A DNA stretch of 64,000 nucleotides from Bacteroidaceae bacterium (lineage in GTDB: Bacteria > Bacillota > Clostridia > Peptostreptococcales > Anaerovoracaceae). A model generated the notes under the pieces. It made no database searches. It saw nothing but the letters and a program-made list of their open reading frames with translations, and was not told where the DNA came from. The position numbers and the translations under genes are program-made. Positions within the stretch are counted from its first letter, which is position 1. Every line of letters starts with the position of its first letter. Below are positions 11,915-40,896 of this stretch, in pieces. Location of the stretch: the NCBI GenBank assembly GCA_963614095.1, contig CAVECM010000013.1, forward strand, positions 10,753 to 74,752. Direction: 5' to 3'.

Positions 11915-13084
11915 ATGAAACAGGTATATCTTGATTATTCGGCAACAACACCTGTTAAAGAAGAAGTCGTCAGGGAAATGCTGCCGTTCTTCACCGAACG
12001 ATTCGGCAATCCTTCCAGTCTCTATGAGGCGGGTCTTGATGCGAAATCAGGTCTTGATAAGGCCAGGGCACAGGTTGCCTCCCTCATAAACGCAGACCCG
12101 AAGGAAATATTCTTTACGTCCTGCGGCACTGAAGCTGACAACTGGGTTCTTGAAGGTACAGCGAACGCTCTGAAGCACAAGGGCAGACATATCATCACCA
12201 GCAGAATCGAGCATCATGCGATACTTCACACATGCCGGTATCTGGAGAAGCTGGGTTTTGAAATAACATATCTTGACGTTGACGGAGAGGGCTTCGTATC
12301 ACCGGAAGCACTCGAAAAAGCCATCCGCAGGGATACGATTCTCGTCAGCATTATGATGGTAAACAATGAAATCGGCACAATTGAACCGATAAAAGAACTG
12401 GCAGCCGTTGCAGAATCGCACGGTGTCCTTTTTCATACCGATGCAGTTCAGGGACTCGGCAACGTGCCTATCGATGTAAAAGACCTCGGCGTCGACTTCC
12501 TGTCGATGTCGGCACACAAAATATACGGACCGAAGGGAACCGGCGCGCTTTACATGAGAAAAGGCGTAAGAATAACGAACTTCATGCACGGCGGTGCACA
12601 GGAAACAAAGCGAAGAGCGGGAACCGAGAATATGGCCGGCATTGCCGGATTCGGAAAGGCAGCGGAGCTTGCGGCTGCAAACCTTGCTCAGCATATCGAG
12701 CACAGCACAAGGCTGAGAGACTACCTCTGGGAACAGATCGAGGCGAACATTTCCGGCGTCACCCTCAACGGTCCGCGTGAAAAGAGACATCCGGGCAACC
12801 TGAACGTATCATTTGACTATATCGAGGGTGAATCGATACTGCTGATGCTCGATGCATTCGGAATCAGTATCTCCACCGGCTCGGCATGCTCGTCAAAATC
12901 GCTGGTGCCTTCGCATGTGCTCGAGGCTATCGGCATCACAATAACAAAAATGAACGGCACGGTGAGATTCACCGTGGGCGACTTTACAACAAAAGAAGAT
13001 ATTGATTACGTCGTTGAAACACTGATAAAAATCGTTGAACGACTCAGAGAATTATCCCCGGTAACGGGACAGGAGGGATGGTAA
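11915..13084 (+). CDS. iscS: Cysteine desulfurase NifS/IscS (group I)
   Basis: YLDYSATTP, FGNPSS, SAHKIYGPKG (PLP Lys), STGSACSS (catalytic Cys). Confidence 0.94.
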   Translation: MKQVYLDYSATTPVKEEVVREMLPFFTERFGNPSSLYEAGLDAKSGLDKARAQVASLINADPKEIFFTSCGTEADNWVLEGTANALKHKGRHIITSRIEHHAILHTCRYLEKLGFEITYLDVDGEGFVSPEALEKAIRRDTILVSIMMVNNEIGTIEPIKELAAVAESHGVLFHTDAVQGLGNVPIDVKDLGVDFLSMSAHKIYGPKGTGALYMRKGVRITNFMHGGAQETKRRAGTENMAGIAGFGKAAELAAANLAQHIEHSTRLRDYLWEQIEANISGVTLNGPREKRHPGNLNVSFDYIEGESILLMLDAFGISISTGSACSSKSLVPSHVLEAIGITITKMNGTVRFTVGDFTTKEDIDYVVETLIKIVERLRELSPVTGQEGW

Positions 13085-15099: not shown

Positions 15100-15480
15100 A
15101 TGAGCACAATTAAAAAAATACACACAGAAAAAGCACCTGCAGCTGTAGGTCCTTATTCGCAGGCAATAGAAGTAAACGGCATGATTTACACGTCGGGACA
15201 GGTTCCGCTTGACCCGGCTACAGGCAAAATAGTTGAAGGCGATATCAGAGCTCAGGCTGACAGAGCAATCCGAAATGTCATCGCAGTTCTGGAGGAGGCG
15301 GGTACAAGCGCTGACAAGGTTGTGAAAACCATGTGCTTCCTTGCTGACATGAGTGACTTTGCCGCATTTAATGAAGTGTACGCTGAATATTTTACAGAAA
15401 AGCCTGCCAGATCATGTGTTGCAGTCAAGTCACTTCCGAAGGACGCTTTGTGTGAAATCGACGTTATTGCAGTGCTGTAG
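15100..15480 (+). CDS. ridA: RidA/YjgF family reactive-intermediate imine deaminase
   Basis: [39 protein letters not shown]. Confidence 0.9.
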
Positions 15481-15623: not shown

Positions 15624-15697
15624 GCGGATGTAGTTTAGTGGCAAAACCTTAGCTTCCCAAGCTAAAGTTGTGGGTTCGATTCCCATCATCCGCTCCA
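15624..15697 (+). tRNA. tRNA-Gly (anticodon CCC)
   Basis: GCGGATG/CATCCGC acceptor stem, TTAGC-TTCCCAA-GCTAA anticodon arm, GGTTCGATTCC T-loop, encoded CCA. Confidence 0.96.
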
Positions 15698-16023: not shown

Positions 16024-17319
16024 TTATTCGATTACCGGTTCGTATCCGTCATATTCGCCGGCAGCAATTGAAGCGATAGTGCTGAGTGTTCTGTCAATGT
16101 CGCCCTCTGTACAGTAAGGCGCAAGACCCATTCTCACTACACCGCCGCTTTCATAAAGCCCGATAGCCTTCATAGCGCCGATAGCATAGAAATCACCGTT
16201 CCAGTTGTTGATGCCCTTGGAGCCGAGCACCTTTGCAACAAAATCATTCGAGTAATTGTCCATAGTGAATACCACGGTCGGTGTTCTCGGCTGACCCTCG
16301 GCAGGACCATAGACATTAACACCCTTGATTTTGCGCAGACCTTTGCGAAGTTTGTCGCCGAGAGGTGCTTCATAGGCATCGATAGCCAGCATTCCGGCAA
16401 CGACATTTCTTCTTCTGCCTTCGAGACCCTCCAGCTCTTCTGTAAAGAATTCAGCATACTTTTCACCGATGGAAGCGATGAAGTTTACAGCCGCTTCACA
16501 TCCGCGCAGATGTTCGTACTGAGGTGTACCCATGTGGAACTGTCTTGCACCCTCTGCGATATCGTCAGCCTTTGCATTGTTGAAGTCGATTCTGTCCACG
16601 TGCTCCTTCTTGAGATAGATAAGACCCATGTGAGGTCCGAACCATTTGTAAGGCGAGCAGAGGAGAGCGTCAGTATCGATAGCCTTTACATCAATCGGCA
16701 GATGAGCTGCATAGTGCACTGCGTCTATTACTGTAAATGCGCCGAATTTGTGAGCTTCATCTATAAACTTCTTTACATCCGTAATTGTGCCGAGACCGTT
16801 TGACGCCCAGTTGACAGCAACTACCTTTGTCTTATCGGAAAGCTTCGATTTGAAGTCTTCAAAGTCAAGCTGCTGCGTTTCAGGGTCTACGCGTATAGTC
16901 TTTATCACACAGCCGAATCTTTCCAGAGACTGCCACGGTGCGACATTGCACTGATGGTCGATTGCGGAAATGATTATTTCATCGCCCGGCTTGAACTCCT
17001 TGGAGATGTTCATTGCCAGATTGTAGCAGTTCTGAGTCGAAGAGCAGTTGTATCCGACTTCTTCTGCATCACAGCCGAGAAAATCTGCAGCTGCCTGTCT
17101 TGCAGCAATCTCGATATCGCGCTGCTTCGTACTTGCTCTGAAGTTGCCGTCCTCGTTGGCATTATCATTGATAAGATATCCTGTGATGGCATCCAGAACA
17201 CACTGTGGTACCTGAGTGCCTCCCGGGCCGTCGAGATAAGCGATCGGAGTTCCGTTTATTTCTAATTTACATGCAGGGAACTGGTCGCGCAGTGCTTGTA
17301 CATCGAATTTAAATTCCAT
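16024..17319 (-). CDS. Class-V PLP enzyme, 'cysteine desulfurase-like' subfamily lacking the catalytic Cys
   Basis: YLDGPGGTQVP N-terminal signature, IDAVHYAAH, CSPYKWFGPH (PLP Lys); GDFYA where SufS has GHHCA. Confidence 0.82.
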   Translation of the reverse strand: MEFKFDVQALRDQFPACKLEINGTPIAYLDGPGGTQVPQCVLDAITGYLINDNANEDGNFRASTKQRDIEIAARQAAADFLGCDAEEVGYNCSSTQNCYNLAMNISKEFKPGDEIIISAIDHQCNVAPWQSLERFGCVIKTIRVDPETQQLDFEDFKSKLSDKTKVVAVNWASNGLGTITDVKKFIDEAHKFGAFTVIDAVHYAAHLPIDVKAIDTDALLCSPYKWFGPHMGLIYLKKEHVDRIDFNNAKADDIAEGARQFHMGTPQYEHLRGCEAAVNFIASIGEKYAEFFTEELEGLEGRRRNVVAGMLAIDAYEAPLGDKLRKGLRKIKGVNVYGPAEGQPRTPTVVFTMDNYSNDFVAKVLGSKGINNWNGDFYAIGAMKAIGLYESGGVVRMGLAPYCTEGDIDRTLSTIASIAAGEYDGYEPVIE

Positions 17320-17554
17320 TTTACTACCTCCGTTTTTCCTTTCATTATTACCTGTGAATTTAACTTACGGTTTGCCGCGTCTGTCTGCGATTGTCTGCGT
17401 TCATCCGCATTTTCCGGTTTTCACCTGCGTTGTTCAGCTTTTATACGCATCTGTCCGCATCTGTCCGCGTTTATCAGTGTTTTGTGATTTGTCTCCATTA
17501 TATAAATTGCAGAATTTCGTACAAGTGTTCAGAATCTGAATAAAAAAGGGCGGT

Positions 17555-17612
17555 TTTGTACAAAATACAAAAGCTGACAAGGCAATTCACATACTTTGTA
17601 CAAAATACAAAA
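17555..17612. promoter_or_regulatory. Paired operator TTTGT-N7-ACAAA in the divergent promoter
   Basis: Exact direct repeat TTTGTACAAAATACAAAA at 17555-17572 and 17595-17612; partial copies near 17516 and 17632. Confidence 0.65.
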
Positions 17613-17768
17613 AATTCAAATCGTTTTATTTTTTGTACAATTGTGCAGGTTTTAGAACAATGATAGACTACAGCCAAGAAAACAGATAGAGTTTCCGGAA
17701 ACATTCAAAAGCATTACCAAAACATTAAAACCTTTAAAACACGTTTGAAGAAACGGAGGAACATTATT

Positions 17769-19127
17769 ATGGAAGACAAGAACATACAGGGGACTGTAAA
17801 AGAAATCGCGCCCCGTAAAAATCTGGGCTTCTGGGCTCTGTGGGCTCTGGGTGTAGGCTCAGTTGTAGGTGACGGTATTTTCCTGCTTCTCGGACAGGGC
17901 GTTCAGGTTGCGGGACCGAGTTCCGTCCTGGTATTCGCAGTTGCGGGCATCATTCAGGCAATAGTAATGATCAGTCTGGCCGAGCTGGCTGTAGGCATGC
18001 CGAGTGCCGGAGCAATGTCAGTATGGATTGACAGATTTCTCGGCGGCTGGTGGGGATATCTGGCAGGATTCGGATTCACAGCCGGCTGGATTATCGCCGG
18101 AGGCAGCACAGGCATCGCACTCGGAACACTGACATGCTGGTATTTCCCGGGACTGAATCAGGAATTATGGACAGTTCTGTTCGGAATCATTTTCTTAACT
18201 ATCTTTGCAGCTCTGAACGTATTCGGTGCAGCGATTGCAGCTCGTACACAGCTCATTATGGTTCTGGCTCTGCTGGCGGTAATGGTCGTATTCGGTATCG
18301 CCACTATGCCGAGTGTTGAAACCAGCGATCTGACACCTTTCGCACCTTACGGAATCGCAGGCTGCATGGCAGCGCTTCCTCTCGGAACATACGCATATCA
18401 GGGAGCCGTGACGCTCACGACAGCCGGTGATGAATGTAAAGATGTCAGAAACCTGCCTAAGGCACTTGTATGGTCAAGCATCACGTTTATAGTGGTTTAC
18501 ACTGTATGCATGATTGGTGTTCTCGGAATCATTCCGTGGGATCAGATTTCAATGGCAGAATCGCCGTTTACATTAGCAGCAGCCAAGGTATTCGGAAAGG
18601 CAGCCGGCTTCATCATGAACAGTGCAGGATGGCTGGCAGCAGCAACATGCATCATCATGGGAACACTTTATTCATCATCAAGAGTATTCTATCACATGGC
18701 AAAGGTAGGACAGATGCCTAAGGTATTCGGAGAAATGAATCCTAAGACAAGAACTCCTGTCAAAGGTGTAATCATCATCTGGGCGCTGTCAGTAGCAATG
18801 GTTCTGCTGGGAACAATCAATGCAGACCTTGTATATGTGACACTTTCCAATCAGATTACGATAACATACGCTGTAATATGGATTCTGGCTCTTGTCGCTG
18901 CAATCAGATACAGAATGAAGTGCCCGGATGAGGTAAAGGCAGGCGGCTTCAAGATGCCTCTCTTCCCGGTACTGCCGGTAATAGGAATTATCGGAGTGGC
19001 ATTCGTGCTTTACACATGCATCTCCAGCTACCTCACATCTGTTATTCTCACTGTAATATGGATGGCACTGCTGTATGTATACTACAGACTGGTAGTAAAG
19101 AAGAAGGAGCATCTCGAAACATATTAA
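17769..19127 (+). CDS. APC family amino acid/polyamine permease
   Basis: GVGSVVGDGIF in TM1, ELAVGMPSAG, about 12 TM helices, SSSRVFYHMAK, TRTP; RBS GGAGG. Confidence 0.88.
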   Translation: MEDKNIQGTVKEIAPRKNLGFWALWALGVGSVVGDGIFLLLGQGVQVAGPSSVLVFAVAGIIQAIVMISLAELAVGMPSAGAMSVWIDRFLGGWWGYLAGFGFTAGWIIAGGSTGIALGTLTCWYFPGLNQELWTVLFGIIFLTIFAALNVFGAAIAARTQLIMVLALLAVMVVFGIATMPSVETSDLTPFAPYGIAGCMAALPLGTYAYQGAVTLTTAGDECKDVRNLPKALVWSSITFIVVYTVCMIGVLGIIPWDQISMAESPFTLAAAKVFGKAAGFIMNSAGWLAAATCIIMGTLYSSSRVFYHMAKVGQMPKVFGEMNPKTRTPVKGVIIIWALSVAMVLLGTINADLVYVTLSNQITITYAVIWILALVAAIRYRMKCPDEVKAGGFKMPLFPVLPVIGIIGVAFVLYTCISSYLTSVILTVIWMALLYVYYRLVVKKKEHLETY

Positions 19128-19285
19128 AAACACTTCAGCGGAATAAACCGGCGGCATCGTGATGTCCGGCCGGGGGTCCGTATTACATATATCGGAATTC
19201 CGATGTCTTAACAAGCAAGGATCTGCACCGCGGATTCCGATAATGAATTAAGATAAATCAAATACATGTCAGGAGGTATGAAGAA

Positions 19286-20182
19286 ATGCTTATTAAAAAA
19301 GATCATGTTATCTACAATTTTGACAAGAACCATGAACCGGTGGCGAAGGTTGATCTGCCGGCATCACTCGAATTCGAGACAAGAGACTGCTTCCACGGCT
19401 TCATCTCAGATGAGACAAAATTCCTGAAGGATGTGGATTACTCATACTGCAATCCGTCAACAGGACCTGTATATTTCAACGGTGTCAAGCCGGGAGATGT
19501 ACTCGAGGTTAAAATCAAGAAAATAAAATGCAAATCCCCGGGATACACAATGAGCGTGGAAAACGACGGACTTCTTGCTGAATACAATCATAAAAACATC
19601 ACTCGCATGATTGATTTTGACGATGAATTCTGGTACTACGACGGAATGAAGTTCCCGCTCACACCTATGATCGGCGTTATCGGTGTGACTCCGGCTGAGG
19701 GCACTCCGGCAACTGCCGCACCCGGAGACCACGGCGGCAACATGGATACAACCCTGATTAAAGAGGGATCCACAGTATTTCTTCCTGTATCCGTAGAGGG
19801 CGGTCTTATGGCAGTCGGAGACTTCCATGCTGCAATGGGAGACGGCGAATCGTTTTACATGGGACTCGAGGCCGAGGGTTATGTCGAGCTTGACGTAAAC
19901 GTAAGACACGACATGAAGATTGACATCCCGTTCGTTATCGCTGACGGAAGATTCGCATCGATTGCTACAGAGGTCGATGCCGACGCGGCACTTAAAAAGG
20001 CTATGAAGAAGCTCGTAGACTTCGTGGCAGACCACAGTGAGCTTGACTTTTACAATGCAGGCATCATCTGCGGACTGACAGCCGATCTGCAGATCAGCCA
20101 GATGGTTGACGTGGAAAAGACTGCACGTATGGCGATAGATCTCAGCGTTCTCAGAGAAGTGGGTATACACCTTTTTGACTGA
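19286..20182 (+). CDS. Acetamidase/formamidase (FmdA/AmdA) family protein
   Basis: ETRDCF, NPSTGPVY, PMIGVIGV, HGGNMD, GDFHAAMGDGE, ISQMVD. Confidence 0.88.
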   Translation: MLIKKDHVIYNFDKNHEPVAKVDLPASLEFETRDCFHGFISDETKFLKDVDYSYCNPSTGPVYFNGVKPGDVLEVKIKKIKCKSPGYTMSVENDGLLAEYNHKNITRMIDFDDEFWYYDGMKFPLTPMIGVIGVTPAEGTPATAAPGDHGGNMDTTLIKEGSTVFLPVSVEGGLMAVGDFHAAMGDGESFYMGLEAEGYVELDVNVRHDMKIDIPFVIADGRFASIATEVDADAALKKAMKKLVDFVADHSELDFYNAGIICGLTADLQISQMVDVEKTARMAIDLSVLREVGIHLFD

Positions 20183-20189
20183 TAACTGA

Positions 20190-20241
20190 AACAGAGCGCT
20201 GCACTTACGGTTTGAGACCGGCGGTGCAGCGCTTTTTCTGT
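20190..20241. terminator. Terminator between the amidase and the convergent regulator
   Basis: AGCGCTGCAC...GTGCAGCGCT followed by TTTT. Confidence 0.65.
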
Positions 20242-20258
20242 ATTATCAATTTCCTGCA

Positions 20259-21467
20259 TTATTTAAAAAACGTGTCCAGGTATTTTCTGGCGCGGTGTAT
20301 TGTCGTGAATATATGGAGTGCACTGTAAAAAGCAATATCGTTTTCGGTACCCAGCAGTGCACTTATTTTATTGATGCGGTACCTTATGGTATTCTTGTGC
20401 TGAAACAGTGAATTCGCAACTCCTTCTATATTGCCACCGTGATCTGTGAATGCCAGCACGGTATCCAGCAGCGTGGAGGATGAATTGCCCTGCGGTGAAA
20501 GCATCGCGAGCGTTTCCGAATAATATTCCTTGTAATCCGGCGTGTAAATCTGCGGCAGGAGCAGTTTATCCGTGCCGGCATTGCCGAATTCAAGGCGATG
20601 CTTATCCCTGAGACAGCAGCTCGTGTTCGCATAGATTGACTCAATCAGCAGCGATGAAATATCCGCAAATCCATGTATCGGCTCAGAATATCCGATGCGA
20701 TGATTCTCAAGAAGCTTACTGTCCAGCAGTACAGAAGTCAGCATACTTGTGAATTTCTCGACGTCTTCATCCTCTGCAGAACTGCAGGTGCTTATAAAAA
20801 ACATACCGCGCCTGTAAATCGTGAAGGCATGCGCATAGTATACACCGTCTGCCTGTGAGGGCAGCGTTTCCTTTATTTTTTCTGATATCAGCATATATTC
20901 ATCTGTCGCTTTATCGGACACGTGACTGATATCGCTGTCATTTGAAATATATGCGGCAAAAACTGTATCCGAGTAAAAAAACTGATTGAGCTTCCTCAGC
21001 ATGAATTCTTTTCGTGAAATGTCCGCACTCTGATCGAAAATAAGAGTCGTTATGGTATTTTCATCCTCTGTATTTCTGATTGAATCCGAAAGCTTATCGT
21101 GTATGAGCACAATCAGGTCATCTATATAAGTCTTTGAAAAAATGAGAATCGGCACATTGTATCTGTCGGCATATGCCTTGATTTCATCCGTCACATCATC
21201 AAAATATACATTTTTTATGGCAATAGCCGCCACGTGATTGTTGATAAGCAGCTTGAGCGCCTTTTCCGAAAGCGAAACGTTGTCCTTCGCCGCAAACAGC
21301 GTCGTTATCACGAATTCTCCGTGAGGAAAGGCCTTCACGATATCGTTGTCCTGCTCGTATTCAAAATATCCGGTGCTGAGGATAGTGTTTCCCAGGCCGC
21401 CTCTGCCGGCTGCCACGCGAAAATTCTGCAGCAGCGGATTTGATAACAGACTTGATACTGTCAGCAT
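20259..21467 (-). CDS. PucR family transcriptional regulator
   Basis: N-terminal PucR domain (LTV..LL...VAAGRGGL...GEFVITT) and C-terminal HTH LFQHKNTIRYRINKI. Confidence 0.88.
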   Translation of the reverse strand: MLTVSSLLSNPLLQNFRVAAGRGGLGNTILSTGYFEYEQDNDIVKAFPHGEFVITTLFAAKDNVSLSEKALKLLINNHVAAIAIKNVYFDDVTDEIKAYADRYNVPILIFSKTYIDDLIVLIHDKLSDSIRNTEDENTITTLIFDQSADISRKEFMLRKLNQFFYSDTVFAAYISNDSDISHVSDKATDEYMLISEKIKETLPSQADGVYYAHAFTIYRRGMFFISTCSSAEDEDVEKFTSMLTSVLLDSKLLENHRIGYSEPIHGFADISSLLIESIYANTSCCLRDKHRLEFGNAGTDKLLLPQIYTPDYKEYYSETLAMLSPQGNSSSTLLDTVLAFTDHGGNIEGVANSLFQHKNTIRYRINKISALLGTENDIAFYSALHIFTTIHRARKYLDTFFK

Positions 21468-21646
21468 TGCTTTACCTCTTTTCTTCTGATTATATCTTCA
21501 TGCAGAGCACACCGCTTCAGACACGGCTGCAGTCTGCATAATTAAGCTCATGTGCAGCAGCGCAGCACACAATGTGCGGCTTTGCATATAAATACACATA
21601 TATCAATTATATGCAATCCGGCAGAAAAAATCACTAAAAAATTCAT

Positions 21647-21663
21647 TTTGTTCTTTTTACAAA
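21647..21663. promoter_or_regulatory. Third TTTGT-N7-ACAAA operator, between the regulator and the aminotransferase
   Basis: TTTGT-TCTTTTT-ACAAA, same geometry as the sites at 17555 and 17595. Confidence 0.55.
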
Positions 21664-21763
21664 TGCCGCCCCGTATGTTTTGACTTCAGCCAATTGAAGC
21701 ATCCGGCGGTTTTGTTAATATGAATATATATTCATCTGAACCATTGAAAAAGGAGGCAGTAAA

Positions 21764-22960
21764 ATGCAGTTATCTGAAAAAGTAAATGCCATGCAGCATT
21801 CACCTATAAGAAAATTCAATCCCTATGCAGAGCAGACAGTCCGTACCGGTAAAAAAGTCTATAAGCTGAACATAGGCCAGCCGGATATAGAAACACCGGA
21901 GTGCTTTCTGGAGGCCGTGAAAAATTTTGACAGGAGAGTTGTCGCATACTCGGAATCAGGCGGTGAGACAATTCTTCAGGATGCCATAATCGGATACTTC
22001 GAAAGATACGGCATGCATTTCAGCAGAAAGAATATGATTATAACCAACGGCGGATCCGAGGCTCTGAACATGATTTTCACGGCAATCCTCAACAGCGGCG
22101 ACGAGGTGCTGATTGCTGAGCCGTTTTACACGAACTACCGCACATTTGTCGCAGCGGCAGGCGGAAAGGTCGTTCCTATAACAACAAGCGCCGAGGACGG
22201 ATATGATTTCTGCAGAAAAGACGAAATCGAAAAGCTGATTACGCCGAAAACGAGGGCCATCTGCTGCATAACACCGGGAAATCCGACCGGCAGAGTCATG
22301 ACTCTCGATGACATGAAGCTTATCGGTGAGATTGCCCGAGAACACGATCTGTGGATTGTTGCAGACGAGGTTTACAGGGAATTTGTCTATGACGGCGGTG
22401 ATATCGCTTCATTCGGTATGCTCGATGAGCTGGCCGACAGAGTTATTATAGTCGACTCGGTTTCAAAGAGATTCTCGGCATGCGGCGCCAGAATCGGATG
22501 TGCCGTATGTAAAAACGCAGACCTGATGGATGCGCTGATGAAAATCGCGCAGGGCAGACTCTGCTGTTCAACGCTGGATCAGATCGGCGCAGCAGCACTG
22601 TACCGTCTCGACAACTCATATTTCGACAAAGTCAGAGAAGAATACAGAAGCCGCAGAGATGCTGCATATGAAGAGGTCATGAAAATACCGGGCGTTGTGT
22701 GTCACAAACCGGCAGGCGCGTTTTACATGACGATAAAGCTGCCCGTGGACAACGCTGAGAAGTTCCTGATGTTTATGCTGACTGAATTCGAGGATGAAAA
22801 CGAAACAGCAATGTTTTCACCTGCAGAAGGATTTTACAGCACTCCGGGACACGGAAAGGACGAAATCAGAATTGCCTACGTGCTTGACAGCAGGAAAATG
22901 AAGCGCGGTATGGAGCTTATCCGAAAGGGCCTCGACGCATACAATCACAAATACCAGTAA
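21764..22960 (+). CDS. PLP-dependent aminotransferase class I/II (copy 1)
   Basis: LNIGQPD, TNGGSEAL, PGNPTG, ADEVYREF, DSVSKRFSACGARIG. Confidence 0.9.
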   Translation: MQLSEKVNAMQHSPIRKFNPYAEQTVRTGKKVYKLNIGQPDIETPECFLEAVKNFDRRVVAYSESGGETILQDAIIGYFERYGMHFSRKNMIITNGGSEALNMIFTAILNSGDEVLIAEPFYTNYRTFVAAAGGKVVPITTSAEDGYDFCRKDEIEKLITPKTRAICCITPGNPTGRVMTLDDMKLIGEIAREHDLWIVADEVYREFVYDGGDIASFGMLDELADRVIIVDSVSKRFSACGARIGCAVCKNADLMDALMKIAQGRLCCSTLDQIGAAALYRLDNSYFDKVREEYRSRRDAAYEEVMKIPGVVCHKPAGAFYMTIKLPVDNAEKFLMFMLTEFEDENETAMFSPAEGFYSTPGHGKDEIRIAYVLDSRKMKRGMELIRKGLDAYNHKYQ

Positions 22961-22980
22961 AAATACTTTCCAATATTGAA

Positions 22981-23018
22981 AACAATGCTGCCGGAAAAAC
23001 CGGGGCATTGTTTTTTAT
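22981..23018 (+). terminator. Intrinsic terminator
   Basis: AACAATGCTGCCGG-aaaaa-CCGGGGCATTGTT followed by a T tract. Confidence 0.7.
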
Positions 23019-23060: not shown

Positions 23061-23100
23061 CATGTTATCATGTTATCATGTTATCATGCAGTCATGTAAC
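23061..23100. repeat. 8-bp tandem repeat (CATGTTAT x3 plus 2 degenerate copies)
   Basis: catgttat catgttat catgttat catgcagt catgtaac. Confidence 0.8.
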
Positions 23101-33317: not shown

Positions 33318-35936
33318 ATGGAAAAACTAGGCTTGAATCAAATCAGAGAAATGTTTTTAAGCTTCTACCAGTCAAAAGAGCATTACAGAAGACAGAGCTT
33401 CCCTCTCATCCCCGAAAAGGACAAGAGTCTGCTTCTGATCAACTCCGGAATGGCACCGCTGAAGCCTTATTTTGCAGGGCTTGAGACTCCGCCGAGCAAA
33501 CGAATGACTACATGTCAGAAATGCATAAGAACCGGCGACATCGAAAACGTGGGCTTTACATCAAGGCACGGCACGTTCTTCGAAATGCTCGGAAGCTTTT
33601 CATTCGGAGATTACTTCAAGACAGAATCACTGACATGGGGCTGGGAATTCATCACTCAGGTGCTGAAGATGCCTACGGACAAGCTCTGGGCCACTGTCTA
33701 CGAGGACGATGACGATGCCTATGCAATATGGAGAGACAAGCTCGGAATGCCGGAGGAAAGAATTGTCCGCCTCGGCAAGGACGACAACTTCTGGGAAATC
33801 GGCACAGGTCCGTGCGGTCCATGCTCCGAAATATATTTTGACAGAGGTGAGAAATACGGCTGCGGCAGTCCTGACTGCAAGCCGGGCTGCGACTGCGACA
33901 GATATGTTGAATTCTGGAATCACGTGTTCACACAGTTCAGCCGTGATGAAGAAGGCAATTACTCGGATCTCGCTCATCCGAACATTGATACAGGCATGGG
34001 ACTCGAACGTCTCGCATGCATCATGCAGGGAGTGGATTCGATATTCGATATAGATACTATCAAGCACGTCCTCGACGGTGTTGTTGAGGTTTCAGGCGTG
34101 AAATACGAAAACGGTGAAGCCGATACAGACGTCTCCATCAGAATAATCACCGACCATCTCAGATCCATGACATTCATGATCGGCGACGGCATCACGCCGG
34201 GCAACGAGGGCAGGGAATACGTGCTCCGAAGACTCATAAGAAGAGCCGCACGACACGGCAGAATTCTCGGTATCGAGGGCCCGTTCCTTTCGAAGCTCTG
34301 CGGCAGAGTTATCGACATATCGGCAGAGGCTTATCCTGAGCTGGAAAAGCGCCGCGTGATGATTGCCAAGGTTGTTGCCGCTGAAGAGGACAGATTTGCA
34401 TCCACAATAGATCAGGGCATGAAAATCATCAGCGGATACATCGATGACCTCAAGGCTGCCGGAAAAACAGTACTTGACGGCGAAAGCGCCTTCAAGCTCC
34501 ACGACACTTACGGATTCCCGATTGATCTGACAAGAGAAATCCTTGAAGAATCAGGCTTCTCAGTTGATATCGAGGGATTTGAGGCTGCGATGGCAGAGCA
34601 GAAAACCCGTTCGCATGTTGAACAGGAGATGGAGGGCGCCGGCTGGGATGAGGTCTCAACTGATTTCCTCAAGGGCGAAGAAACCGAATTCACAGGATAT
34701 GATGCTCTTCAGACAGAGGGAACTGTTAAGTTTATTTTCCGCGATCAGGATCTTATCGACAGTGTGAAGGAAAACGAAACCTGCATGGCAGTGCTTGACA
34801 GGACTTCTTTCTATGCGGAAAGCGGCGGCCAGGCAAATGATACAGGATATATGCAGAATGACAGCTGCAGACTCGAGGTGCTCGATGTCAAGAAAAAGGG
34901 AAAGGCATTCGTACATAAGGTGAAGGTACTCAGCGGTGAGCTCAGAACCGGTGATACTGTCACTACCATGCCTGTTGTTTCCGACAGGAACCGTACATGC
35001 GCGAACCACACTGCAACGCATCTTCTGCATAAAGCACTGCAGATTGTTCTCGGTGATCATGTAAAGCAGGCAGGCTCCTCGGTTACAAAGGATGCTCTGC
35101 GTTTTGACTTCAGTCATTTCCAGGCTATGACAGCTGAGGAAGTCGCAGAGGTTGAGGCTATTGTAAACGATAAAATCAGCACTTTTATAGATGTTCATAC
35201 TGATATTATGTCTGCGGCAGATGCTGCCAAGACAGGTGCGACAGCGCTCTTCGGAGAAAAGTACGGAGACGTTGTAAGAGTTGTTTCCATCGGCGATTAC
35301 AGCTGTGAGCTCTGCGGCGGCACGCATGTAAAGAACTCCGGTCAGATTGGTGCATTCAAGATTCTCAGTGAATCCGGCGTTGCCTCGGGTGTGAGAAGAA
35401 TCGAGGCAGTTACAGGTCTGGGAATTCTCGAAAAGTACAATGAAGATGAGGTGCTTATCGCCGAAACATCCGGTGTACTCAAAGCAAAACGCGATTTCAT
35501 TGCTGAAAAGGCAGCTGCACTCACAGATGAAGTGAAATCATTGAAAAAAGAAATCGAGGAGCTCAAAAAAGCCGAAATGAACAAAGGTCTTGATGATCTT
35601 ATCGGTGATGCTGCTGAGGTTAACGGCATAAGACTTATAACAAAGCAGTTTGATGATTATAATATCAGCGATCTCAGAGGACTCTCGGATCAGATAAAGG
35701 CTGATAACAATAATGTTGCAATGGTATTTGCAGCAGTTTCCGGCGGAAAAGTCACATTCCTCGTTTCGCTTTCTGATGATGTTGTGGAAAAGGGATATCA
35801 CGCAGGCAAAATGATTAAAGAAATCGCAGCTGCTGCAGGCGGCGGCGGCGGCGGAAAAGCTGATATGGCTCAGGCCGGAGCGAAGGATCCGTCCAGAGTT
35901 CCTGATGCTTTTGCAAAGGCTGCAGAGCTGTTATAA
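33318..35936 (+). CDS. alaS: Alanine--tRNA ligase
   Basis: INSGMAPLKPYF, RHGTFFEMLG, GPCGPCSEI, DTGMGLER, NHTATHLLH, ELCGGTH, GGGGKADMAQAG. Confidence 0.97.
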   Translation: MEKLGLNQIREMFLSFYQSKEHYRRQSFPLIPEKDKSLLLINSGMAPLKPYFAGLETPPSKRMTTCQKCIRTGDIENVGFTSRHGTFFEMLGSFSFGDYFKTESLTWGWEFITQVLKMPTDKLWATVYEDDDDAYAIWRDKLGMPEERIVRLGKDDNFWEIGTGPCGPCSEIYFDRGEKYGCGSPDCKPGCDCDRYVEFWNHVFTQFSRDEEGNYSDLAHPNIDTGMGLERLACIMQGVDSIFDIDTIKHVLDGVVEVSGVKYENGEADTDVSIRIITDHLRSMTFMIGDGITPGNEGREYVLRRLIRRAARHGRILGIEGPFLSKLCGRVIDISAEAYPELEKRRVMIAKVVAAEEDRFASTIDQGMKIISGYIDDLKAAGKTVLDGESAFKLHDTYGFPIDLTREILEESGFSVDIEGFEAAMAEQKTRSHVEQEMEGAGWDEVSTDFLKGEETEFTGYDALQTEGTVKFIFRDQDLIDSVKENETCMAVLDRTSFYAESGGQANDTGYMQNDSCRLEVLDVKKKGKAFVHKVKVLSGELRTGDTVTTMPVVSDRNRTCANHTATHLLHKALQIVLGDHVKQAGSSVTKDALRFDFSHFQAMTAEEVAEVEAIVNDKISTFIDVHTDIMSAADAAKTGATALFGEKYGDVVRVVSIGDYSCELCGGTHVKNSGQIGAFKILSESGVASGVRRIEAVTGLGILEKYNEDEVLIAETSGVLKAKRDFIAEKAAALTDEVKSLKKEIEELKKAEMNKGLDDLIGDAAEVNGIRLITKQFDDYNISDLRGLSDQIKADNNNVAMVFAAVSGGKVTFLVSLSDDVVEKGYHAGKMIKEIAAAAGGGGGGKADMAQAGAKDPSRVPDAFAKAAELL

Positions 35937-36002
35937 AAAACAGTTTTTCATACACCTGCGGAATTTGTATCAATATCGGCCGGTGATGCATTGCGGCAGT
36001 GT

Positions 36003-36088
36003 CCGATGAAGCATCACAGCAGCTGTCTGTGAAATATTTCAGCAGCGGCCGATGAAGCATCACGGCAGCAGCCGGCAGAGTATTTCAG
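36003..36088. repeat. 46-bp imperfect direct repeat x2 after alaS
   Basis: CCGATGAAGCATCAC...TATTTCAG at 36003 and 36049; a partial third copy near 35980. Confidence 0.7.
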
Positions 36089-36215
36089 AAAAATGGTATT
36101 CGTCAGGATTAATTATATATTTGCTGTGAATATTTTGTGTTGATATGTATTTTTACTTGTATTCAGGTGTGTGAGAATGTTATAATTTCAATATATAGAT
36201 GAACGGAGGGATATG

Positions 36216-36464
36216 ATGGACATGCAGACAAGAATGTATGATAATTTCGATAAAGTAGAGCAGAGAACTATTGAAGAAATTTTGAATATAGTATATGATG
36301 CACTGGAAGAAAGAGGATACAACGCTATAGACCAGATGGTGGGATATATTTTATCCGGCGATCCTTCATACATTACAAGCCACAACAATGCCAGAAATGT
36401 AATGGGCAGAATTGAGCGAGATGATCTGGTAGAAGAGCTTATAAGGGCATATCTCCGCAAATAA
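36216..36464 (+). CDS. ireB: IreB/ReoM (UPF0297) family regulatory phosphoprotein
   Basis: VYDALEERGYNAIDQMVGYILSGDPSYITSHNNAR; conserved alaS-ireB-ruvX order. Confidence 0.9.
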   Translation: MDMQTRMYDNFDKVEQRTIEEILNIVYDALEERGYNAIDQMVGYILSGDPSYITSHNNARNVMGRIERDDLVEELIRAYLRK

Positions 36465-36560
36465 CAGACTGCTGATGATTATCTGTATATCAGTAATTAT
36501 ATGCATCGGCAGTTATCTGTAATCAAGTGATGAATAAACCTGAAAACTTGAATCAGCTTC

Positions 36561-36594
36561 AAAAGGCGAACAGAAATGTCCGCCTTTTATTTTT
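36561..36594 (+). terminator. Intrinsic terminator after ireB
   Basis: AAAAGGCGAACA-gaaa-TGTCCGCCTTTT followed by a T tract. Confidence 0.7.
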
Positions 36595-36917
36595 ACCACT
36601 GTTTATTTTACTGCAGTTTTTTACTGATGCTTATTTTTACTGATGCAGAAGACAGGCAGTTCTGATGGATAATATTAATATCATTATTAATATCAATGTC
36701 AGCGAAAGTTAAAACAGATTGATTCAGGCCGGATGCTTTAACGATCGGGAGCCGGACGCTTTATCAGTACCGGAGATATAAAAAAGCACATAAACAGAAC
36801 TTACATAAATATATATACGTAAAAAAATATAACAGTAAAAAATAATATTATAATTGAATATAACAGCCGATTAATTGATATAACAAGCAAATATATTAAT
36901 CGCAGGAAAGGAACAGC

Positions 36918-37352
36918 ATGAAAAAAATTGCACTTGATGTGGGCGATAAAACCATCGGCGTTGCTGTAAGCGATGCACTCAACCTGACAGCGCAGGGCGT
37001 TACAACAATAGAAAGAATAGGAATCCGAAAAGATTCCGGCAAGGTAATGGATTATATTAAAGAATTCGGATGTGACACAGTTGTAATCGGGCTTCCAAAA
37101 AAACTGGACGGTACCGACAGTCCACAGACGGAGAAAGTATACGAATTCAAAACGATGCTTGAAAATAAAATGCGCAGCAGCGGAATGGCCGATGTGAAAA
37201 TTGAATTTTACGACGAACGTCTCACAACTGTAATGGCAGAAAAAGTTCTCATCGAAGCTGATGTCAGCCGCCGGAAGAGAAAGAAGGTTATAGACAAACA
37301 GGCTGCAGTAATAATTCTGCAGGGATATCTGGATTCAATTGCTGTCCGATGA
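36918..37352 (+). CDS. ruvX: YqgF/RuvX family pre-16S rRNA nuclease / resolvase-like protein
   Basis: ALDVGDKTIGVAVSD, VIGLP, DERLTT, IDKQAAVIILQGYLD. Confidence 0.92.
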   Translation: MKKIALDVGDKTIGVAVSDALNLTAQGVTTIERIGIRKDSGKVMDYIKEFGCDTVVIGLPKKLDGTDSPQTEKVYEFKTMLENKMRSSGMADVKIEFYDERLTTVMAEKVLIEADVSRRKRKKVIDKQAAVIILQGYLDSIAVR

Positions 37353-37385
37353 CACAGAGGAAAAACAATTCTACCCGCGCCCAAC

Positions 37386-37413
37386 TATTCCTATAATCAT
37401 AATTATCGGAATA
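37386..37413. other. Candidate dif (chromosome dimer resolution) site, 11-6-11, inside a 22-bp-arm inverted repeat (37375-37424)
   Basis: TATTCCTATAA-TCATAA-TTATCGGAATA; arms 10/11 symmetric; lies at the +/- gene-orientation switch. Confidence 0.6.
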
Positions 37414-37522
37414 GTTGGGTGCGGTAATCAAGTTTCATCCTCGAATTAAAGCCTCTATTAGGTAAATTCAGGATTTTAACAAAAGAAAGAGCCGGGTGCA
37501 CTATTCCCGGCATTACATTACG

Positions 37523-38044
37523 CTACATTGCACTTTCCAGAATCTGTTCATCCTCATTCTGTATTTCATTTGTGCTTTTAATTCTTTTATGCTTTATAAA
37601 TATTGTTCTGAATATCAGTCTGGCAGCAGGACCTACAACGATCAACTGCAGCGGAAATGCCATGATAAAATTTTTACAGTATGTTATCAGATAATCAGGT
37701 ATGAAGTTGGCTGTGAATCCGTATTCATGATATACACCGAGCACACTTGCAAAAGCCACCTGCCAGACAACAGTAAATGTCTGTATTGCAAAAATAATAA
37801 AAATAGGTCTGTCTCCCGGCTGTACAACTCTGAATGCACACATCTTCGCAAGATGACCGGATACAAAATATGCCAGCAAGCCAATTATTATATATTCTAT
37901 CCACATTCCCTTCAGTGCGATGAGGAAACTGGCATTGGTAAAGCTGCATGTCGAAATAACCATGTTATACAAGGTCATGACGTATACCATCATCCATGCT
38001 GTAATTGCTGTAAAAAAAATCGATTCTCCTCTTGTCTTAGGCAT
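37523..38044 (-). CDS. DUF2798-like membrane protein
   Basis: MPKTRGESIFFTAITAWMMVYVMTLYN and NFIMAFPLQLIVVGPAAR; about 4-5 TM helices; start overlaps the upstream stop. Confidence 0.7.
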   Translation of the reverse strand: MPKTRGESIFFTAITAWMMVYVMTLYNMVISTCSFTNASFLIALKGMWIEYIIIGLLAYFVSGHLAKMCAFRVVQPGDRPIFIIFAIQTFTVVWQVAFASVLGVYHEYGFTANFIPDYLITYCKNFIMAFPLQLIVVGPAARLIFRTIFIKHKRIKSTNEIQNEDEQILESAM

Positions 38045-38657
38045 TATTGTTTTCTCCTTCGTTATATTTTTCGACAGCACTGAGAATCAGCTCAACTGTC
38101 TGTTCTTTAGTAAATATACCTGTATCAATTGAAATATTGTAATTCGCAACTCGTCCCCATTCTCTTCCCGTAAAAAACTGATAGAGCATACCTCTGGAAC
38201 GATCCTTCACTTCAAGCTCTCTTTTAATTCTTTTTTCTTCTCCCGAGATACCCTCGTGGCGCTGTACCCTGTTTACTCGATATTCAATATCCGCATGTAT
38301 AAAAATATGAAGTGCGTCTTTTCTTTTTGAAAGTATATAATCGGCTCTTCTTCCGACGATTACACAGTTTCCTTTTTCAGCGATAGACTGTATAAGTTTT
38401 GTCTGTGTTTCCTGAATTCTGTCCAGAGGCACCTTGCTTTTTCTTGAGAACGGTATGAATCCGCTTGCCATGTCAATATAAGTTTTATCTGACATTGTTT
38501 CCTCGTTTTCTGCTACAGTTTCCTCATCGATATGCATTTCCTTTGCTGCCAGTGAAATCAGTTCTTTATCATAAAAATCATAGCCCAGCTTTTCTGCAAG
38601 CATTTTTCCGATTGTATGACCACCGCTCCCTGTTTCTCTGCTGATTGTGATAATCAT
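38037..38657 (-). CDS. Cytidylate kinase-like family protein
   Basis: IITISRETGSGGHTIG, YDKELI, CVIVGRRADYIL, YNISIDT. Confidence 0.85.
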   Translation of the reverse strand: MIITISRETGSGGHTIGKMLAEKLGYDFYDKELISLAAKEMHIDEETVAENEETMSDKTYIDMASGFIPFSRKSKVPLDRIQETQTKLIQSIAEKGNCVIVGRRADYILSKRKDALHIFIHADIEYRVNRVQRHEGISGEEKRIKRELEVKDRSRGMLYQFFTGREWGRVANYNISIDTGIFTKEQTVELILSAVEKYNEGENNNA

Positions 38658-38677
38658 AGCTCATCCTTTCCGACAAC

Positions 38678-38732
38678 AAAAAAACAATAAATGCGCCCAT
38701 CCGTCTGACAGTGGATAGGTGACATTTATTGT
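38678..38732 (-). terminator. Leader terminator (attenuator candidate) upstream of the CMK-like gene
   Basis: Minus strand ACAATAAATG-TCACCTATCC-loop-GGATGGGCG-CATTTATTGT-TTTTTT, ending about 20 nt before the ATG. Confidence 0.65.
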
Positions 38733-38770
38733 CTGTAGTGTCTTGTATATTAATTTTTCTCAACATTTAT

Positions 38771-38799
38771 ATTTTACAAAATTACGCAGACAGAATCAA
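38771..38799 (-). promoter_or_regulatory. sigma-A promoter for the CMK-like/DUF2798 pair
   Basis: Minus strand TTGATT-17bp-TAAAAT. Confidence 0.55.
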
Positions 38800-39060
38800 G
38801 TGCAAAGTTTAATATAAAACCGAACAAAATTGCCAGAGTTAATTACCGAAATTGTCGGTTCCGAACAGCAGGCAGCTTCACACAAAAGAAAGAAAGCAAG
38901 AAAGAAAAAACAGGCAGTAAATATATGATATGCCTGTTCTCTCATTTTGGAATATATGTTTATTATGATGATTTTTATTTTACAATCTGCTCTCTGTATA
39001 GTAAAAAAATAATATAACGATTGAATGCAGCAGCCGGACCCCGGAATAATGATTCAGACA

Positions 39061-39375
39061 TCAAAAATCTTCAGGTATGGAAAGAATCATTCCGGGAACA
39101 AGATCAGACGCCTGAATATCATTAATTCTGCATATCCTGTATACAGCTTTTCTGGTGTCTGTGCTGTCCGATTTATATGTATTGGCAATATCCCATAAAG
39201 TATCTCCGGAACAGATTTCAATTTCCTTATATTCCACGGCAGTCATTGCCCTTGAGTCATTCAGGCCGGAAACAGCTCCGATTATTCCTATAAGCAGCCC
39301 GACAGTTATAACAATGAAAGTTATGAATCTGAATTTGGATTTAATCCTGTATCTTTTTCTGTAAGCGGTTTCCAT
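39061..39375 (-). CDS. yneA: YneA-like SOS cell-division suppressor (TM helix plus LysM)
   Basis: Basic N-terminus, one TM helix, LysM ICSGDTLWDIA...INDI...LVPGMILSIP; SOS boxes upstream. Confidence 0.8.
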   Translation of the reverse strand: METAYRKRYRIKSKFRFITFIVITVGLLIGIIGAVSGLNDSRAMTAVEYKEIEICSGDTLWDIANTYKSDSTDTRKAVYRICRINDIQASDLVPGMILSIPEDF

Positions 39376-39413
39376 GCGGCACTCTCCTCTCCTGCTCTTC
39401 TCTTTACATCAGC

Positions 39414-39493
39414 AGAACATTTGTTCTCTTTGCTATCTAGAGTATAGCAGAATGTATGTTCGCTGTCAATATAATTTTTGAAACATTTGTTCG
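39414..39493 (-). promoter_or_regulatory. yneA promoter with three LexA (GAAC-N4-GTTC) boxes
   Basis: AGAACATTTGTTCT (39414), AGAATGTATGTTCG (39449), GAAACATTTGTTCG (39480); minus-strand TTGACA (39469-39464)-17bp-TATACT (39446-39441). Confidence 0.85.
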
Positions 39494-39690
39494 CATCTAC
39501 GGAGCTTTGCGGACATTAAAGCTGATGAAGGGAAAACATTTGAAGCACAGACATGAAAGCAGCAAAAAACCGACTGCACATATAATAATGTCCGGTTCTC
39601 CGGTTCATCAATATGCGAGTCGGTTTAAAGTCAGTTTGCTGTGGATTTCGAATCTCCTTATTCAATATACAAGTCGTTTTACTGTGAATA

Positions 39691-40896
39691 TCAGACTCTC
39701 TCATTCACCAGTGTGAACCCTGCTTCTGACAGCTTTCTCTTAATCTCATCTATCTGCGCACGGTCACGTGTCTCGAGCGCTATCTTCAGGAAGCAGCTGG
39801 TAATTGCCATATTTACATCTCCTCTGTCATGGTGAAGTGCCACAACATTCGCACCGCATCCGGCTATAATCTCCGAAACCTCCTGAAGCTGTCCCGGCTT
39901 ATCCGTAAGAGCTATCGTCAGATTCGCATTACGGCCGCTAGTCACAAGACCGCGCGTAATCACGCGATTGAGAATATTTACATCTATATTGCCCCCGGAC
40001 ACTATGCTGACAACTTTCTTGCCTTCAATCGGCAGCTTATCAAACAGCACAGCCGTAACAGCAACAGCACCGGCACCTTCTGCTATAACCTTCTGCTTCT
40101 CAATGAGAGCCAGGATAGACGCCGCGATTTCATCCTCCGACACCGTAACGATATCATCCACATACTCATCAACTATGCTGAATGTAGTATCACCCGGCTG
40201 CTTTACCGCAATTCCGTCCGCAAAAGTATTCGCAGAATCAAGCATAACAGGGTGCCCCGCACGACGGCTTTCATACATGCTGGCTGAGCCTGCAGCCTGT
40301 ACGCCGTATATTTTGATATTCGGGTTAAGCTGCTTGACGGCATAAGCAATTCCCGATATAAGACCTCCTCCGCCTATAGGCACAACAATAGCGTCGGGCT
40401 CCTCGAGCTCATCCAGTATTTCCAGACCAATCGTTCCCTGCCCGGCTATCACTTCATCATCATCAAACGGATGTATAAAGGTTGCACCGGTTTCTTCCTG
40501 CACTCTGAGTGCCTCAGCATATGCATCATCGTATACGCCTTTTACGAGACATACCTCTGCACCGAGATGTCTTGTCGCCTCAATCTTGCTGATCGGCGCT
40601 CCGTCCGGCATGTATATAGTCGCCTTTATGCCATTGTGCGATGCAGCCATTGCAACACCCTGTGCATGATTTCCCGCACTGCATGCAATGATTCCGCGCG
40701 CTTTTTCCTCATCGGTAAGCTGGCTTATCTTGTAATAAGCTCCGCGCAGCTTAAAACTGCCCGTTCTCTGAAGGTTCTCTGTTTTAAGATAAAGCTCGCA
40801 CTTCTGTGTGAGAGCAGTAGCTTTTATAAGATCTGTTTTTCTTGCAACATTTTTAAGTACATATGCTGCATGATATATTTTGTCGAGCGTCAGCAT
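39691..40896 (-). CDS. ilvA: Threonine ammonia-lyase with C-terminal ACT domain
   Basis: LKTENLQRTGSFKLRGA, SAGNHAQG, PIGGGGL, SGGNID, TDKPGQL. Confidence 0.9.
   Translation of the reverse strand: MLTLDKIYHAAYVLKNVARKTDLIKATALTQKCELYLKTENLQRTGSFKLRGAYYKISQLTDEEKARGIIACSAGNHAQGVAMAASHNGIKATIYMPDGAPISKIEATRHLGAEVCLVKGVYDDAYAEALRVQEETGATFIHPFDDDEVIAGQGTIGLEILDELEEPDAIVVPIGGGGLISGIAYAVKQLNPNIKIYGVQAAGSASMYESRRAGHPVMLDSANTFADGIAVKQPGDTTFSIVDEYVDDIVTVSEDEIAASILALIEKQKVIAEGAGAVAVTAVLFDKLPIEGKKVVSIVSGGNIDVNILNRVITRGLVTSGRNANLTIALTDKPGQLQEVSEIIAGCGANVVALHHDRGDVNMAITSCFLKIALETRDRAQIDEIKRKLSEAGFTLVNERV

Follow-up and report, generated by a model that had tools for sequence, protein, structure and literature searches.

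The 64,000-nucleotide stretch of DNA analysed here (the window; contig CAVECM010000013.1) carries at positions 16024–22960 a cluster of five genes, encoding a class-V pyridoxal phosphate (PLP) enzyme of the TIGR01976 family, an APC permease, an FmdA/AmdA-family amidase, a PucR-family regulator and a class I aminotransferase. An initial annotation of the sequence had described these genes as two divergent arrangements, and this description held: all five open reading frames (ORFs) are intact, have ribosome-binding sites, and are placed and oriented as first described, with every product scoring above the curated cut-off for its family. The host is probably a Gallibacter-like anaerobe, a genus of the Anaerovoracaceae; a homologue named from Gallibacter shows 81% identity.

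16024..17319, minus strand: TIGR01976 class-V PLP enzyme, 431 amino acids (aa); core gene; no desulfurase Cys; probably an alanine-releasing C-beta/C-gamma lyase
17769..19127, plus strand: APC amino-acid permease, 452 aa from an ATG with a GGAGG site; cassette gene 1
19286..20182, plus strand: short FmdA/AmdA-family amidase (298 aa); cassette gene 2; both the GGNxD and the GDxH-GDGE motif intact
20259..21467, minus strand: PucR-family regulator, 402 aa; core gene
21764..22960, plus strand: class I aminotransferase of the PRK07568 type; accessory, duplicating a housekeeping gene

The class-V enzyme scores 378.8 bits against the TIGR01976 model (cut-off 352.35) and is a member of that family. 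The permease matches PF13520 (163.6 bits; cut-off 27), and a score of 106.2 bits against PF03069 (cut-off 27) places the amidase in the acetamidase/formamidase family. The regulator has the PucR/CdaR architecture, with PF07905 at its N-terminus (56.7 bits; cut-off 33.5) and the helix-turn-helix domain PF13556 at its C-terminus (47.7 bits; cut-off 27), and the aminotransferase scores 568.2 bits against NF005744/PRK07568 (cut-off 389).

The operator and the PucR–class-V core

Both divergent gaps contain the inverted repeat TTTGT-N7-ACAAA. The elements that bear on transcription of the locus are given below, with reference to G089, the closest relative (94% identity for the class-V enzyme and 65% for PucR).

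17555..17571, no strand: operator site 1, TTTGT-N7-ACAAA; identical in G089
17595..17611, no strand: operator site 2, TTTGT-N7-ACAAA
17625..17641, no strand: degenerate site 3 (two mismatches); abuts the putative −35 of the permease operon
21647..21663, no strand: operator site 4, in the pucR/aminotransferase gap; G089 has a site at the equivalent place
17498..17525, minus strand: putative class-V promoter, with a TATAAT −10 and a weak −35 (TTGTAC) 16 nt away; footprint kept in G089
20195..20237, plus strand: terminator-like hairpin at the convergent amidase/pucR junction (z −5.9)
22978..23015, plus strand: terminator-like hairpin 3′ of the aminotransferase gene (z −3.9)

The exact motif occurs three times in the window, where 0.08 occurrences are expected, and all three copies (starting at 17555, 17595 and 21647) lie in the two divergent gaps, as the initial annotation had proposed. 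None of 100 shuffles of the window reached three copies. When sequences were resampled with the AT-rich composition of the gaps themselves, two or more sites were obtained in 0 of 20000 trials, and a single site in the second gap alone in 19 of 20000. Genome-wide, there are eight exact sites, compared with 0–6 for other spacings; hence, the count is unremarkable outside the locus. Alignment with G089 shows both −10 boxes and the operator sites to be preserved between diverged flanking sequences. The putative class-V promoter was read by eye from the sequence and this alignment; the promoter scan, which performed at chance level (13 versus 15.2), did not report it. Two further repeats were seen: imperfect 10-nt repeats in the class-V leader (window 17376-17490), which are absent from G089, and an 8-nt tandem repeat beyond the aminotransferase terminator (window 23061-23092).

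We compared the locus with 101 other class-V loci, fetched with their neighbourhoods: 37 of 37 matches from the genus, 51 of 59 other matches from the family sample, 7 of 7 from the class, five at order level and one metagenome contig. The genomes are kin, so that counts are not independent, and counts of neighbours are floors because many contigs are short. Of 77 genomes of the genus, 37 carry class V and 21 a PucR relative; 73 have the aminotransferase and 2 a close APC. At 43 of the 101 loci, PucR and class V are no more than 6 kb apart. The operator survey covered the first 91 class-V loci, window included, of which 88 had enough upstream DNA. With up to one mismatch allowed, 27 of the 37 loci that have PucR within 6 kb carry the operator upstream of class V, but only 6 of the 51 that lack such a PucR do; controls gave 0 of 89 downstream regions and 32 of 757 other ORFs. 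This agrees with the PucR-type regulon first suggested. We conclude that the operator is real and conserved and tracks the PucR gene, and that the stable core consists of PucR and the TIGR01976 class-V enzyme, the five genes not being a fixed unit. The encoded PucR very probably binds the operator and activates from it.

The motif is not private to this regulator. It recurs in the same genome between an alanine dehydrogenase gene and a PucR paralogue, and it is found at PucR-ald, PucR-KamA and PucR-agmatinase loci; the motif is thus family-wide, and the recognition helix is common to PucR paralogues. The alanine dehydrogenase locus (L120:3644-7892, contig C30) also includes an NhaC-family permease, and this AdeR-like module could take up alanine made by the class-V reaction. 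On contig C125 of the same genome, a perfect operator lies about 200 bp upstream of a GPH-family symporter gene (L267:2544), a possible further regulon member or a chance occurrence. In genome G015, the class-V locus is adjoined by a second PucR gene, which has an exact site and is divergent from APC, agmatinase and an extra homoserine dehydrogenase (L013:64-5031); canavanine or a C4 amino acid with a guanidino group would suit this cluster.

Three further genes in the window enter the discussion.

15100..15480: RidA gene, 0.5 kb from the class-V gene
15624..15697: tRNA-Gly(CCC) gene
11915..13084: true NifS gene

A tRNA-integrated mobile island at tRNA-Gly was rejected because the tRNA sequence occurs once in the genome, with no att duplication of its 3′ end, and the G+C content (0.44-0.48) resembles that of the flanks; the 15–24 kb interval contains no unassigned long ORF. 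Elsewhere, window positions 35000-40000 have low G+C content (0.38-0.41) and a change of sign in GC skew.

The class-V enzyme and its candidate substrates

The predicted structure of the class-V enzyme is confident (predicted local distance difference test score of 93.8), and its fold is SufS-like. However, the GHHCA segment of SufS reads GDFYA here, with the persulfide Cys replaced by Tyr378, and the enzyme falls below the cut-off of the SufS model TIGR01979 (195.8 bits; cut-off 475.1). Residues H122, D199, Y224, K225, H230, Y378 and R396, which include the PLP lysine, the stacking His and the carboxylate Arg, are invariant in 83 of 83 class-V sequences. Given the missing catalytic Cys, and the true NifS encoded elsewhere in the window, we rejected a cysteine desulfurase identity. 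A defence system was likewise discarded, since the matches were only to generic DndA/SspA desulfurases.

Residues 194-250 match only UstD (E = 9e-8) and Fgm3 (E = 2e-5) in the PDB at E ≤ 0.001, and they contain S-x-Y-K-x-x-G-P-H around the lysine, a motif common to these enzymes and KpbH, together with the stacking His and Asp. A Tyr at −1 and a Phe at +2 flank the lysine, whereas Fgm3, whose proposed retro-aldol base is Tyr225, has Tyr at both positions. Fgm3 cleaves 4-hydroxyarginine, giving alanine (PMC10967133), and UstD and kynureninase share an alanine-enamine intermediate, as described in PMC13397446, PMC9191678, PMC11976203 and bioRxiv 2026.06.22.733665. The resemblance at the active site suggests that the class-V enzyme probably cleaves a C-beta/C-gamma bond, releasing alanine.

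The neighbours of class V in other genomes give clues to the substrate. An extra homoserine dehydrogenase is its direct same-strand neighbour in 16 of the 101 loci, and an Fe-alcohol dehydrogenase holds that place in seven different loci, 23 of 101 together; in 4 of 5 genomes checked, the extra homoserine dehydrogenase exists alongside the ordinary copy. Ornithine-racemase-like genes are found within 6 kb in 16 of 101 loci and KamA in 5 of 101, and cysK is near class V in 13 of 91. The dehydrogenase, racemase and KamA neighbours point to a small γ-oxygenated, possibly basic amino acid and to an aldehyde intermediate. As the leading candidate, we tentatively favour a C4 amino acid of the homoserine, aspartate-semialdehyde or 2,4-diaminobutyrate group; 4-hydroxy-ornithine, -lysine or -arginine come next, and are unlikely.

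Two other routes were set aside. For the ornithine route via 2-amino-4-ketopentanoate, the genome of the window has no KamA match, and its matches to the dehydrogenase reach only 24-25%; a search for the aminomutase family also gave no match, although its positive controls were silent too. Canavanine gamma-lyase belongs to a different PLP class, according to the annotation in PMC9533460. Some class-V neighbourhoods in other genomes have contents of their own. Loci L024, L025, L166 and L174, all of one clade, have a stand-alone B3/4 (tRNA-editing-like) gene near class V. At L215:2125-7155 and L220:4355-6754, PRK07324-like PLP enzymes (distant GntC/VioD relatives, below cut-off) and KamA lie directly behind class V. 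In G031 (L027:3671-9120), an ectoine-hydrolase-like M24 protein, an M20 amidohydrolase and a Na/alanine symporter converge on the PucR-class V pair.

The permease–amidase cassette and the proposed route

The order of tRNA-Gly, class V, sites, PucR and aminotransferase in G089, pieced across two contig ends, is the same as in the window. In the middle slot, G089 has an amidohydrolase-3 gene and an NhaC-family permease gene instead of APC and FmdA. Behind this new pair lies a scar (L145:1937-2215) in which APC codons 114-138 are fused to amidase codons 216-297, with 84-88% identity. Unless the 79%-complete G089 assembly is wrong at this point, the APC-amidase pair came first and was then displaced. 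We conclude that the permease-amidase pair is a swappable cassette.

An amide hydrolase with a permease recurs with class V, in G089 and on metagenome contig L112, where PucR is divergent from APC (75%), FmdA (75%) and a distant class V (48%) in a single run. Among 401 genomes of the family, with three candidates scored per genome, the three closest orthologues of the G089 amidohydrolase-3 (66-67%) all lie beside class V, in three genera. A fourth (64%) is accompanied by PucR and the site, with class V elsewhere in its genome, and the genome of a fifth (58%) has no class-V match. In the genome of the window (2.4 Mb), amidohydrolase-3 paralogues number more than 15, which suggests that a wide range of N-acyl compounds is scavenged.

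Amidase residues N152, D154, D179, H181, D186 and E188 are invariant in 10 of 10 sequences. The protein is far below the cut-off of the formamidase FmdA equivalog NF045496 (68.2 bits; cut-off 500), and among the best 25 NCBIfam matches of the permease no substrate-specific APC equivalog model scored above its cut-off. FmdA relatives at 50-57% have no class V nearby; two of them adjoin a homologue of an amino-acid-amide/aminocaprolactam racemase, which suggests that the amidase acts on amino-acid amides or lactams rather than on formamide. It is reasonably likely that the cassette feeds the class-V enzyme.

Relatives of the cassette genes also occur in clusters of other kinds. At L033:4462-11089 and L034:3756-11044, FmdA relatives (56-57%) are found with the amino-acid-amide/aminolactam racemase homologue and a DokD/LysA-like decarboxylase, and the L034 cluster also carries APC, a cyclase and an Orn/Lys/Arg decarboxylase; these clusters look like an undescribed aminolactam-to-polyamine route. 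Related APC permeases lie with cyclase and Orn/Lys/Arg decarboxylase-like genes, as read from sequence, at L114:9434-16089, L115, L117 and L118, and pantothenate-like genes adjoin this type of cluster in two genomes. In a plasmid collection, amidase homologues were found on 1141 plasmids (748 from Klebsiella), all below 60% identity and the best at 38%.

The aminotransferase gene at 21764 is an extra copy: throughout the genus, the ordinary gene lies in a conserved block before mutS (18 loci checked), and in the window this housekeeping PRK07568 copy (573.8 bits; 66% identical to the 21764 copy) occupies 51872-53062, just before mutS. An extra copy is also found with PucR and the site in G089, and beside class V in L211. 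The three class-V-linked copies group together weakly in a tree (support 0.37-0.72). The duplicate may transaminate alanine, although we hold this with some doubt.

From these parts a route can be proposed. PucR would activate three promoters; a γ-oxygenated amino acid would enter through the permease in amide, lactam or N-acyl form and be set free by the amidase; the class-V enzyme would then split the bond between C-beta and C-gamma, giving alanine and a small aldehyde or acid, after which the duplicated aminotransferase would strip the nitrogen from alanine to leave pyruvate. We regard it as an even call whether the five genes behind one PucR operator form this scavenging route of import, amide hydrolysis, C–C cleavage to alanine and transamination. 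The initial annotation had proposed the same order of uptake, amide hydrolysis and PLP-dependent cleavage, and this order is supported; a conserved unit of all five genes is not.

Several observations weigh against the route. Among the class-V loci compared, the full five-gene set is seen only in the window; APC and FmdA stand beside class V in 1 of the 101 other loci, an aminotransferase duplicate is near class V in 1 of 101 plus G089, and most class-V loci have no amide hydrolase nearby. In G086, PucR-APC-FmdA is on a different contig from class V, which itself carries two exact sites. The swap of the cassette may reflect a change of substrate and not the replacement of one step by its equivalent, and the amidohydrolase-3 family is common, as the number of its paralogues attests. 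Since the motif occurs with paralogous PucR proteins, a common site is no proof of a common inducer. The genome of the window lacks the class-V-linked type of homoserine dehydrogenase (best match 33%); the suggested C4 substrate thus rests on other genomes, and the amidase product would need either direct cleavage or the ordinary homoserine dehydrogenase. Finally, in whole-protein and fold searches SufS and Rv3778c are level with or above UstD and Fgm3, and the N-terminal segment of the class-V enzyme favours SufS.

The locus might instead be a patchwork. PucR and class V would form a module of their own, whereas the permease-amidase pair and the aminotransferase would be scavenging genes unrelated to it, with other substrates, captured behind a family-wide PucR motif. 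The replaced cassette in G089, the separation in G086, the presence of the motif at PucR loci with ald, KamA and agmatinase, the recognition helix shared among paralogues, and the FmdA relatives (50-57%) that occur without class V are all in keeping with such an origin. On the other hand, L112 holds the APC-FmdA pair in one run with a class V as distant as 48%, and the replacement cassette is again an amide hydrolase with a permease; in three other genera, its nearest orthologues accompany class V. We consider a patchwork unlikely, but it is the alternative to which we give most weight.

The remaining alternatives concern the chemistry of class V. The enzyme might be a cysteine-independent beta-lyase acting on C-S, C-Se or C-N bonds, like cystine lyase or EgtE, that yields pyruvate and ammonia via 2-aminoacrylate, with RidA clearing the enamine, a role that the initial annotation had suggested for RidA. 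Its SufS-type fold and top whole-protein scores fit this, as do the fold matches to a cystine C-S lyase (Z 38.8) and another C-S lyase (Z 37.0), the RidA gene 0.5 kb away and the cysK neighbours. Yet RidA is found at none of the 101 other loci, has no operator site near it and is separated from class V by the tRNA gene, so that we do not count it as a member of the locus. The enamine idea is weak, because the closest active-site relatives of the enzyme release alanine and not 2-aminoacrylate; moreover, the PLP-lysine segment matches UstD/Fgm3 rather than SufS, and a beta-lyase leaves the dehydrogenase partners unexplained. We judge it improbable. Slightly less probable again is an omega-aminotransferase that converts a diamino acid (e.g. 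2,4-diaminobutyrate) to a semialdehyde, which the partner dehydrogenase reduces. The ornithine-racemase-like neighbours, the ectoine-hydrolase-like cluster that G031 has beside class V, and, in G086, the position of the extra homoserine dehydrogenase behind a class III-like aminotransferase (read from sequence) would suit this reaction, but the fold scores of true class-V transaminases are far lower (Z about 31-32, against 44-50), and the PLP-lysine motif again points to UstD/Fgm3.

Relation to known systems

In the open-access literature, with subscription papers not covered, we found nothing that assigns a function to a bacterial TIGR01976 enzyme or describes this gene set, in line with the earlier view that no characterised pathway has this composition. 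With more than 5,500 homologues, TIGR01976 ranks as a hypothetical equivalog and is routinely called cysteine desulfurase-like despite the missing catalytic Cys. Through the locus and its relatives, this family gains a regulator with an operator, dehydrogenases as partners and a short list of candidate substrates, making its function directly testable.

The closest parallels in chemistry are Fgm3, a 4-hydroxyarginine retro-aldolase, and UstD and KpbH, aspartate decarboxylative aldolase/Mannich enzymes, which have the class-V fold, no desulfurase Cys and alanine-enamine chemistry. These are fungal biosynthetic enzymes, whereas the enzyme described here is bacterial, in an apparently catabolic setting, and is 24% identical to UstD by structure alignment. 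If the proposed route is correct, UstD/Fgm3-type chemistry would also serve catabolism, and amino-acid-fermenting anaerobes would have a further way of using non-standard amino acids, one that is new. A more speculative extension, which we think doubtful, is that TIGR01976 enzymes are bacterial catabolic C-beta/C-gamma lyases of an undescribed fermentation route, in which homoserine, 2,4-diaminobutyrate or their amides or lactams would be channelled into aspartate semialdehyde, or else remain as the gamma-hydroxy acid, before being split to alanine and a one-carbon unit, with interchangeable entry cassettes behind a PucR operator.

Kynureninase is often preceded by a formamidase. KynU is likewise a class-V C-beta/C-gamma hydrolase that releases alanine (PMC9191678), but it is only 17% identical and, at Z 35.5, well below SufS and UstD; no kynureninase model is among the best 25 of 39 NCBIfam matches of the class-V enzyme, and the neighbours of class V point to small aliphatic or basic amino acids. 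SufS/CsdA and Rv3778c, the best overall matches in sequence and fold, differ in the position of Tyr378, where the catalytic Cys is replaced; Rv3778c lacks the PLP lysine, according to PMC12910592, whereas Lys225 is kept here. The canavanine operon of Pseudomonas and Rhizobiales resembles class-V loci in having a PLP enzyme, an extra homoserine dehydrogenase and a B3/4 protein nearby, but its lyase is annotated as class I/II in PMC9533460 and resembles methionine gamma-lyase, and its ABC importer and Gdx were not seen here.

The layout of the locus is of the known PucR module type. As in Bacillus subtilis AdeR-ald and PutR and Corynebacterium glutamicum GabR-gabTDP, a divergent PucR-family gene is combined with inverted repeats just upstream of the −35 of amino-acid catabolic genes, and the PutR site is also a 17-bp inverted repeat, as reported in PMC7652997. 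The locus differs in its target enzymes, in having four sites over two divergent gaps, and in a motif common to several paralogues. The G089 scar plainly records how a transport-plus-hydrolase cassette was exchanged while the operator ahead of it stayed fixed. The value of the locus is mainly as a handle on an uncharacterised enzyme family.

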